From a virus (Duplodnaviria; Heunggongvirae; Uroviricota; Caudoviricetes), in IMG/VR virus record IMGVR_UViG_2547132417_000010: a stretch of DNA of 6,982 bases. One strand, 5' to 3'. Both the position numbers and the translations under genes were made by a program. The notes beneath the pieces were generated by a model that was not told the origin of the DNA, made no database searches, and worked only from the letters and a program-made list of their open reading frames with translations. Within the stretch, counting starts at the first letter, position 1, and the number at the start of each line of letters is the position of its first letter. Of this stretch, positions 1-1,083 are shown in pieces.

Positions 1-230
1 ATACGTTGTAGCTTTTTCCTGAGCTCACGGATTTCAATTTGTTCCGGGGTAATGGGGGAGGCTTTTGGTGTTTTTCCCTGCCGCTCATCACGTAATTGTT
101 TCACCCATCGCGTCATTGTGGAAAGGCCGACATCCATAGCGCTGGCTGCATCTGCCACGGTGTAATTCTGGTCAACGACCAGTTGAGCGGATTCGCGTTT
201 AAACTCTGCGCTGAAATTTCTTTTTTTCAT
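1..230 (-). CDS. IS3-family transposase OrfA (HTH subunit), N-terminal 76 codons; 3' part lies outside the window
   Basis: ATG at 230..228 on the minus strand; the frame is open to position 1; the translation begins [17 protein letters not shown], the recalled IS911 OrfA N-terminus. It is the 3' end of the six-frame ORF 199..1083, read in the same frame. Confidence 0.8.
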
Positions 231-275
231 TATGGCACCTGTGTTGTTCTGAGGTGAGCATATCACCTCTGTTCA

Positions 276-302
276 GGTGGCCAAATTCAGTAAACCACTT
301 CA
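276..302 (-). repeat. Terminal inverted repeat (left end) of the IS3-family element
   Basis: Outermost 27 nt of the element, starting with the TG dinucleotide (top strand ...CA at 301..302). The inner boundary of the IR is approximate because the partner end is outside the window. Confidence 0.5.
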
Positions 303-1083
303 ATTTAAACATCCTTCCTTGACGTGTGGATAGTTCGTCATAGAGCCATTTAGGAATCGGAACAGTTCTATTCTTCTTACCTTTGGTTTTGGTGAAGGTC
401 AGCTTGTAGGGTGAGAGTTGAGCGCGTGTAAGCCTCTCGGCTTCTCCCCATCGTGCACCGGTTGCCAAACATACCTTAACAATCATCGTAAGATTTTCTT
501 TGCCATATTGTTCACAGGCTCGGAACAGCTCCGGGAGCTGAGACAAAGTTAGCCAGGACATTTCTTTCTCAGCTTCTTTGAATACGCGAATCCCGTCCAG
601 TGGATTGGGTAAACTCCACTCCCCTAATCGTCGCAGTTCATTGAACACTGCTTCGAGGTATTGCTGCTCGCGATTGACAGTTATAGGTTTGGCGATCCAC
701 TTCGCCGGGTCTTTGTGATAGCCGTTGTCTATTTCGCCACGTAATCGACGGTCACGGTAATGAGCCCAATCTTTAGCGGTAAGACGAGATGCAATAGGGT
801 CGCCCAACCCGTTACATACGATTTGAAGCTTTGCCAACCGCGACTTACTGGCTACTAACGCCTGACCGTGCAAATTGTGCCAAAGCTGAATAATCTCACT
901 TAAGCGTCGGCGGTCTTCTTTCTTGCCGAGCCACGGCTTATCTTCACTCTCGCTTTTGGTAAATGCTTCGAATGCCTCGGCCTCACCTTTGGTATTGAAT
1001 TGACGACGTATACGCCGCCCTTCCCGGCCATTTGGATAAAGCTCACATAACCATTTACCATTTTTTTGCTTACTTACTGTCAT
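303..1083 (-). pseudogene. int: P2/186-type tyrosine integrase, C-terminally truncated by the IS insertion (native codons 1-260 only)
   Basis: N-terminus MTVSKQKNGKWLCELYPNGREGRRIRRQFNTKGEAEAFEAF and box-I-like LATGARWGEAERL and KTKGKKNRTVPIP resemble the P2 Int family as I recall it. The last 34 codons of the 294-aa ORF ([34 protein letters not shown]) are a translation of the IS end and leader. No H-x-x-R box II or catalytic Tyr segment is present before the junction at 302/303. Confidence 0.75.

Follow-up and report, generated by a model that had tools for sequence, protein, structure and literature searches.

Organization of the locus

The window (the whole stretch of DNA that we analyzed, 6,982 nucleotides) makes up all of contig APZL01000010.1 in a draft E. 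coli assembly (GCA_000356845.2). It belongs to a PSP3/186-like prophage (Peduoviridae) whose neighbors in the E. coli chromosome are rplS on one side and yfiB on the other. The gene order is cI, a DUF2511 gene, int, an open reading frame (ORF) of 117 amino acids that is weakly Cox-like, and the genes for CII, Fil, Dhr, a DUF2732 protein, a TraR-type zinc-finger protein, and the replication protein (gene A). In longer records, the portal, terminase, and capsid genes come next. The order cI, DUF2511, int is the same as in PSP3 (an Eganvirus). The features that matter for our argument are listed in Table 1.

Table 1. Features of the prophage locus, in window coordinates except where another record is named.
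Feature	Position	Strand	Description
ISEc52, left end (IS3 family, IS911-type)	1..302	-	Inverted repeat starts TGAAGTGG at 302; orfA runs past the window start
Chimeric ORF, 294 aa	199..1083	-	int codons 1-260 plus 34 codons from the IS repeat and leader
Target-site duplication, one copy, 3 bp	303..305	.	ATT on the + strand, AAT in the sense of int
int 5' fragment, codons 1-260	304..1083	-	Arm-binding/core-binding part and first half of the catalytic domain
DUF2511/YebY-like gene	1107..1445	-	Separates cI from int; a conserved gene of PSP3-type prophages
CI immunity repressor, full length, 287 aa	1455..2318	-	Phage_CI_repr and Phage_CI_C domains
Split LexA box, left half	6639..6652	+	TACTGT plus spacer ATAAATAT, which ISEc53 duplicated as its 8-bp target
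ISEc53, end (ISL3 family)	6653..6982	-	100% identity; 89 nt downstream of replication gene A; cuts tumA-dinI from the operator region
Group II intron	L017 8779..11048 (CP189652.1)		Outside the window; also in contig L002, from ~11544 to the contig end

A first-pass annotation, made from the window alone, described the immunity repressor as intact, and this description holds: CI is 84% identical to the CI of PSP3 over its full length, and the identical protein is encoded on 106 contigs, including many apparently intact prophages. The 117-amino-acid ORF (2440..2793, + strand) is the first of the rightward operon. It had a weak match to a PHROG family of Cox-like excisionases/repressors (phrog_575, E = 3e-5), and a Pfam search of it gave no match. 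It is likely the equivalent of Apl/Cox and appears intact.

Between int and the att core next to yfiB, this lineage carries a two-gene cargo (8296..10649 in the related prophage L012, or equivalently 14946..17299 in L032). One cargo gene encodes a PtuA-like AAA ATPase (PADLOC PDC-M01A, 527 bits), and the other encodes its 289-amino-acid partner (PDC-M01B, 469 bits, with a faint HNH). The intact integrase of the cargo-bearing lineage has 340 amino acids, unlike the 349 of PSP3 Int, because the cargo replaces the extreme 3' tail of the gene. A relic of the last codons of the 349-amino-acid form (ATGGCGGCAGAGCTTGCATAA) lies after the cargo, which suggests that the cargo entered within the 3' tail of int.

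The rplS-yfiB prophage has decayed in other strains as well, by more than one route. In L015, L018, and L030, gene A is cut to 624 amino acids and adjoins tail gene S, and L019 and L036 have a deletion from CII to gpU. All of these relatives keep cI, the DUF2511 gene, and the PDC-M01 genes, and int is intact in all of them except L018. There, an independent insertion of IS1 breaks the same int allele near codons 305-309, upstream of the codon for the catalytic tyrosine (L018 ~8150..8925, GCA_036586025.1).

The integrase ORF runs into an insertion sequence

The first-pass annotation proposed that an IS911-like insertion interrupts the integrase gene: the apparently intact ORF at 199..1083 would be a chimera of 260 integrase codons and 34 codons of read-through, with the end of the insertion sequence (IS) at 302 and the ATG of its orfA at 230. 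All of these coordinates proved correct. On the integrase side, residues 1-260 of the ORF align without gaps to a 349-amino-acid E. coli integrase (256/260 identical) and to the 340-amino-acid allele of L012 (260/260). The alignment to full-length integrases, which was suggested as a check and expected to stop at about residue 260, ends exactly at K260; the gene is split between codons 260 and 261, unlike that of PSP3. The annotation also called the protein a P2-type integrase. It is a tyrosine integrase of the PSP3/186/HP1 type and is closest to the proteins of vB_EcoM-613R3 and PSP3: residues 1-260 are 98.5% identical to the integrase of phage vB_EcoM-613R3, 90.4% identical to PSP3 Int, and only ~34% identical to P2 Int. 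Structures from the HP1/186/P2 subfamily still align to the intact allele.

On the IS side, all 302 bases match ISEc52, which is the curated name of the element, and copies that are 100% identical to this end occur in many unrelated E. coli contexts. The same bases are 98.7% identical to IS911A/insN of E. coli K-12 MG1655 and ~90% identical to the element that PGAP labels IS911. We set the end of the IS by comparison with an intact ISEc52 copy that is flanked by its own TTT/TTT duplication; this places the terminal TG of the inverted repeat at 302/301 on the minus strand. The start codon of orfA is at 230..228, and the 76 codons of orfA that lie inside the window encode a protein that matches HTH_Tnp_1 (54 bits). 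The 34-codon tail of the chimeric ORF is IS sequence, and its stop codon (199..201) is 29 nt within orfA, in a different frame. The chimeric ORF is codirectional with orfA, so that transcripts and ribosomes from the cI-int operon cross the transposase start (at 199..232) and may affect transposase expression.

The chimeric protein lacks the catalytic tyrosine

To locate the catalytic residues, we aligned intact relatives to the structures of HP1 Int (1AIH) and P2 Int (5C6K), which match the intact allele with E = 9e-59 and E = 3e-52, respectively. The catalytic residues of HP1 Int, which we take to be R207, H280, R283, and Y315, are at a constant offset of +4 from those of the int studied here. 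Of the set R-K-H-R-H-Y, the chimeric ORF retains R211 (451..453) and the beta-hairpin lysines K234 and K236 (382..384 and 376..378), and it is missing H284, R287, H310, and the nucleophile Y319. The absence of the box II His/Arg and of the catalytic Tyr had been predicted. The length of the missing C-terminal part had been underestimated at ~75 residues; it is 80 residues in this allele and 89 in the 349-amino-acid relatives.

Domain models give the same picture. The N-terminal/core-binding domain is present (Int_N, PF24624, 108 bits, residues 57-169). The Phage_integrase model (PF00589) matches the chimeric ORF at 23.1 bits, which is under the gathering cut-off of 27.1 bits, and the match is confined to positions 2-75 of the 172 in the profile; for the intact allele, the score is 69.7 bits and the match spans positions 2-171. 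None of the NCBIfam recombinase models match the chimeric ORF, while the intact integrase matches nine of them, mostly via residues ~257-331.

Could the 294-amino-acid protein instead be a naturally short integrase from a gene that was never truncated? The ORF does look intact, and it is in GenBank (EMX76075.1/END47618.1) under the label “phage integrase family protein.” But its relatives in the 90% cluster all have 340-349 amino acids and a catalytic C-terminus, so that the homologs ending near residue 260 that would go with a native short form were not found in this cluster. Given also that the alignment ends at residue 260 and is followed by IS sequence, and that the H, R, H, and Y residues and a recombinase match are absent, a natural short variant is extraordinarily improbable. 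We rejected it on the alignment break at K260 together with the 3-bp duplication and the in silico restoration of a 340-amino-acid gene that are described below. By its sequence, the chimeric ORF is a pseudogene product of the tyrosine recombinase family and not a functional member.

In a related integrase gene (L010 157..1205, Logan SRR31793423, 89% DNA identity), a frameshift has produced separate ORFs of 294 and 55 amino acids. That the first of these has the same length as the chimeric ORF is a coincidence, as the causes differ (a frameshift versus an IS).

A complete genome contains the other side of the insertion

The window's contig covers only 302 bp of the IS. The complete RefSeq E. 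coli genomes of the searched collection lack the junction, and a protein search for the displaced end of int, with the C-terminal 89 amino acids of a related integrase, led to nothing but partial genes that are unrelated and assemblies full of errors (P0005/L007 and P0047/L008-L011). Exact matches to the window's CI, gene A, and DUF2511 proteins took us to a complete E. coli genome (CP189652.1) that contains all 6,982 bases of the window at 100% identity, including both IS junctions. We infer that the window's strain and CP189652.1 are the same at this locus. As uninterrupted comparisons we used two prophages that are 99.9% identical (L012 and L033); the DNA identity of 303..6652 to the uninterrupted prophages is 99.92%.

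The first-pass annotation had predicted a far IS end, a duplication of ATT (303..305), a displaced 3' fragment of int, and an att site beyond the IS. In CP189652.1, past the point where the window's contig ends, we found the IS end, the duplication, and the fragment, along with a candidate for the att site. AAT flanks both ends of the insertion but occurs only once in the uninterrupted target (TTTAAATCCTGC). The inserted DNA measures 3520 bp and lies between codons 260 and 261. Directly behind it is the in-frame 80-codon remainder of int (SCYQDF...HVLRH...LGH...RYAHF... to the stop), which carries H284, R287, H310, and Y319. Thus, the 3' part of int is displaced, not deleted, in CP189652.1. 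If the insertion and one AAT are removed in silico, the result is a 340-amino-acid protein with no differences from the intact allele. The IS ends, the duplication, the lack of any other lesion in int, and the exact restoration of the gene indicate a simple and recent transposition. After the two-gene cargo comes the candidate att core (GTGGCGGCA...TGGCGGCAGAG), which is found at both ends of the prophage and whose int-proximal copy is intact in CP189652.1.

The window is a short contig with repeated IS sequence at both ends, as might be expected if the int-IS junction were an assembly artifact (a repeat-induced chimera at a contig end). However, an 84.7-kb contig from another strain and the complete chromosome of 4.94 Mb both have this junction in their interior, and it is present in independent assemblies (GCA_000356625.2, GCA_000356845.2, and GCA_051991285.1). 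A chimera would also not account for the matching 3-bp duplication at the far IS end. We rejected the artifact on the strength of these internal junctions and the duplication, and we see virtually no chance that it is correct.

A different concern is that, in the window's strain, the IS might have caused an adjacent deletion, so that the 3' fragment and the att site were lost rather than displaced. The window ends inside the IS, and its own far side lies beyond the contig. Furthermore, neither the left junction nor the predicted right junction turned up when we searched collections of genome and metagenome contigs for exact matches. But the pattern for the right junction had been built from a different int allele, with TGCTATCAGGAG in place of the correct TGCTACCAAGAC, and CP189652.1, which agrees with the window at every base (6982/6982), the two IS junctions included, has the fragment. 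We therefore consider such a deletion to be very unlikely, and we take the 3' part of int to be displaced in the window's strain as well.

The insertion sequence contains a group II intron

The element in int has the features of ISEc52 and IS911: terminal repeats TGAAGTGGT at both ends with 5'-TG...CA-3' termini (as in the IS3 family), a 3-bp target duplication, an OrfA with a helix-turn-helix, an A6G motif near the end of orfA (TTAAAAAAGG) that is a candidate slippery site, and an OrfB with an rve/DDE domain (109.6 bits once the intron is removed). Unlike a plain ISEc52, this copy has a 2270-bp group II intron in orfB, just after the GDVTY motif, and this is why the insertion is 3520 bp long. 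With the intron taken out, the IS measures 1250 bp and agrees with a reference ISEc52 at 1249 of 1250 positions.

The intron encodes a 502-amino-acid reverse transcriptase-maturase (RVT_1 and GIIM). Domain V/VI of the intron matches Rfam RF00029 (Intron_gpII) at 64.9 bits (the cut-off is 40), and the match ends exactly at the 3' boundary that we had mapped. An Rfam scan of the window and of contig L002 found no match, in the case of L002 because the contig stops before domain V. Copies that are 100% identical occur in thousands of E. coli records, and about half of the complete E. coli genomes have identical copies, mostly within IS3-family transposases. E.c.I4-type group II introns home into IS3-like (IS911-like) transposases at a specific site, giving a tandem of over 3 kb (PMC3522654). 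The intron in int resembles E.c.I4 in its specific site within an IS911-like transposase, in the size of the intron/IS combination (over 3 kb), in its reverse transcriptase-maturase ORF, and in its domain V/VI match. By this behavior, it is probably E.c.I4.

The intron within the IS, the fact that the 3' part of int is displaced and not lost, and the second IS that we describe next were all absent from the first-pass annotation.

A second insertion sequence splits the SOS operator

The other end of the window lies in ISEc53, which has the features of the ISL3 family: a DDE_Tnp_ISL3 transposase, ends GGGTCTTCCCC, and an 8-bp target duplication. In CP189652.1, it is a simple insertion of 1885 bp. 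Beside its transposase, and inside the 1885-bp element, is a passenger gene that encodes a 172-amino-acid DUF1706 protein (L032 3008..3526).

ISEc53 splits the SOS operator of tumA, having landed precisely within the 8-bp spacer of its LexA box. The uninterrupted prophage has a LexA box (TACTGTATAAATATACAGTA, L033 4788..4807) that agrees with the consensus at 19 of 20 positions (one mismatch), with 0 such boxes expected by chance. In the uninterrupted relatives, this box is 20 nt upstream of the ribosome-binding site and ATG of a 60-amino-acid ORF that is 98.3% identical to TumA of PSP3, and a DinI-like ORF follows. The SOS module of the 186/PSP3 type (LexA box, tumA, and dinI-like gene) is thus present in these relatives, while in the window the box is split, and a scan of the window for an intact LexA box found none. 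[quoted passage not shown] The tum of PSP3 exists as two genes, one encoding an antirepressor and the other dinI-like (PMC3121763). By analogy with the biology of phage 186 and PSP3, we infer that ISEc53 severs the promoter of tumA; a scan for sigma-70 consensus sequences around the LexA box found no promoter. By the same analogy, the insertion probably abolishes the normal SOS control and induction of the prophage. In the sister strain E. coli 2726800, the insertion in int is present and ISEc53 is absent, which indicates that the insertion in int came first.

Consequences for excision

We propose that ISEc52 transposed into int at codon 260/261 of a PSP3/186-type prophage, with the usual 3-bp duplication being made. 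The 5' fragment of int is now read via the terminal repeat of the IS into the 34-codon nonsense tail. The truncated product keeps the DNA-binding domains, the first catalytic arginine, and the beta-hairpin lysine, and the 3' fragment, with the His-x-x-Arg box, the second histidine, and the nucleophilic tyrosine, is stranded 3.5 kb away, behind the IS and with no start of its own. That a tyrosine recombinase needs its tyrosine nucleophile is established chemistry. Since the 294-amino-acid product has neither this tyrosine nor the His/Arg box, it would be unable to cleave DNA or to form the phosphotyrosine intermediate, and self-catalyzed, Int-dependent excision (attL x attR) should fail while CI immunity would persist. 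We are highly confident in this explanation as a whole, namely that the ISEc52 insertion truncates int and leaves a prophage that cannot catalyze its own excision and whose CI is intact. To judge from the sequence evidence, which is good, the prophage is very probably excision-defective (“locked-in”). Given both IS hits, the prophage in the window's strain is, we believe, probably both non-excisable and no longer SOS-inducible.

Even with int broken, the prophage might still excise, if Int were supplied in trans by a related prophage or if the IS were occasionally lost precisely. Integrases of the PSP3 type are common in E. coli, neither the 3' fragment nor the candidate att core is damaged, and removal of the IS in silico restores the gene exactly. 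However, we found no second copy of int within the ~30 kb that we examined, precise excision of IS3-family elements is rare, and ISEc53 has disrupted the SOS operator of tumA as well in the strain of the window. Excision by these routes seems unlikely to us, and we maintain that the prophage is very probably locked in.

Implications

The inactivation of a prophage integrase by an IS is already known and commonplace, and all of the components at this locus match known elements at or near 100%. Defective E. coli prophages in which an IS disrupts the integrase gene include those hit by IS629 in O157 Sakai and the cryptic prophages of K-12. As in those prophages, the IS turns int into a pseudogene and leaves the genes for immunity and cargo in place. 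Unlike them, this is a very recent event with no other lesion in int; the IS is itself nested with another element; and in one lineage a second IS has entered the SOS operator. The case is mildly notable, and nothing more than that, because mobile elements lie one inside another and because one IS has hit an excision gene and another an induction operator; our knowledge of the systems involved is unchanged.

The two IS hits could conceivably be successive, selected steps of domestication, with the loss of int first and the loss of the LexA operator second (which would remove a lethal, dead-end SOS induction), and with the host keeping the CI immunity and the PDC-M01 defense cargo. The IS1 insertion that arose independently in this int allele of another strain would fit recurrent selection. 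We regard this scenario as rather doubtful. It is more speculative still that the truncated Int, with its arm- and core-binding domains, might act as a dominant-negative protein that binds att.

For annotation, the deposited 294-amino-acid “phage integrase family protein” should not be counted as a functional recombinase, and prophage prediction should rate the element as non-excisable even though its gene set is largely complete. With a single lesion in int and perfect restoration in silico, the locus is a tidy and datable example of prophage lock-in, and it shows how far nesting can go: an intron in an IS in an integrase gene in a prophage.
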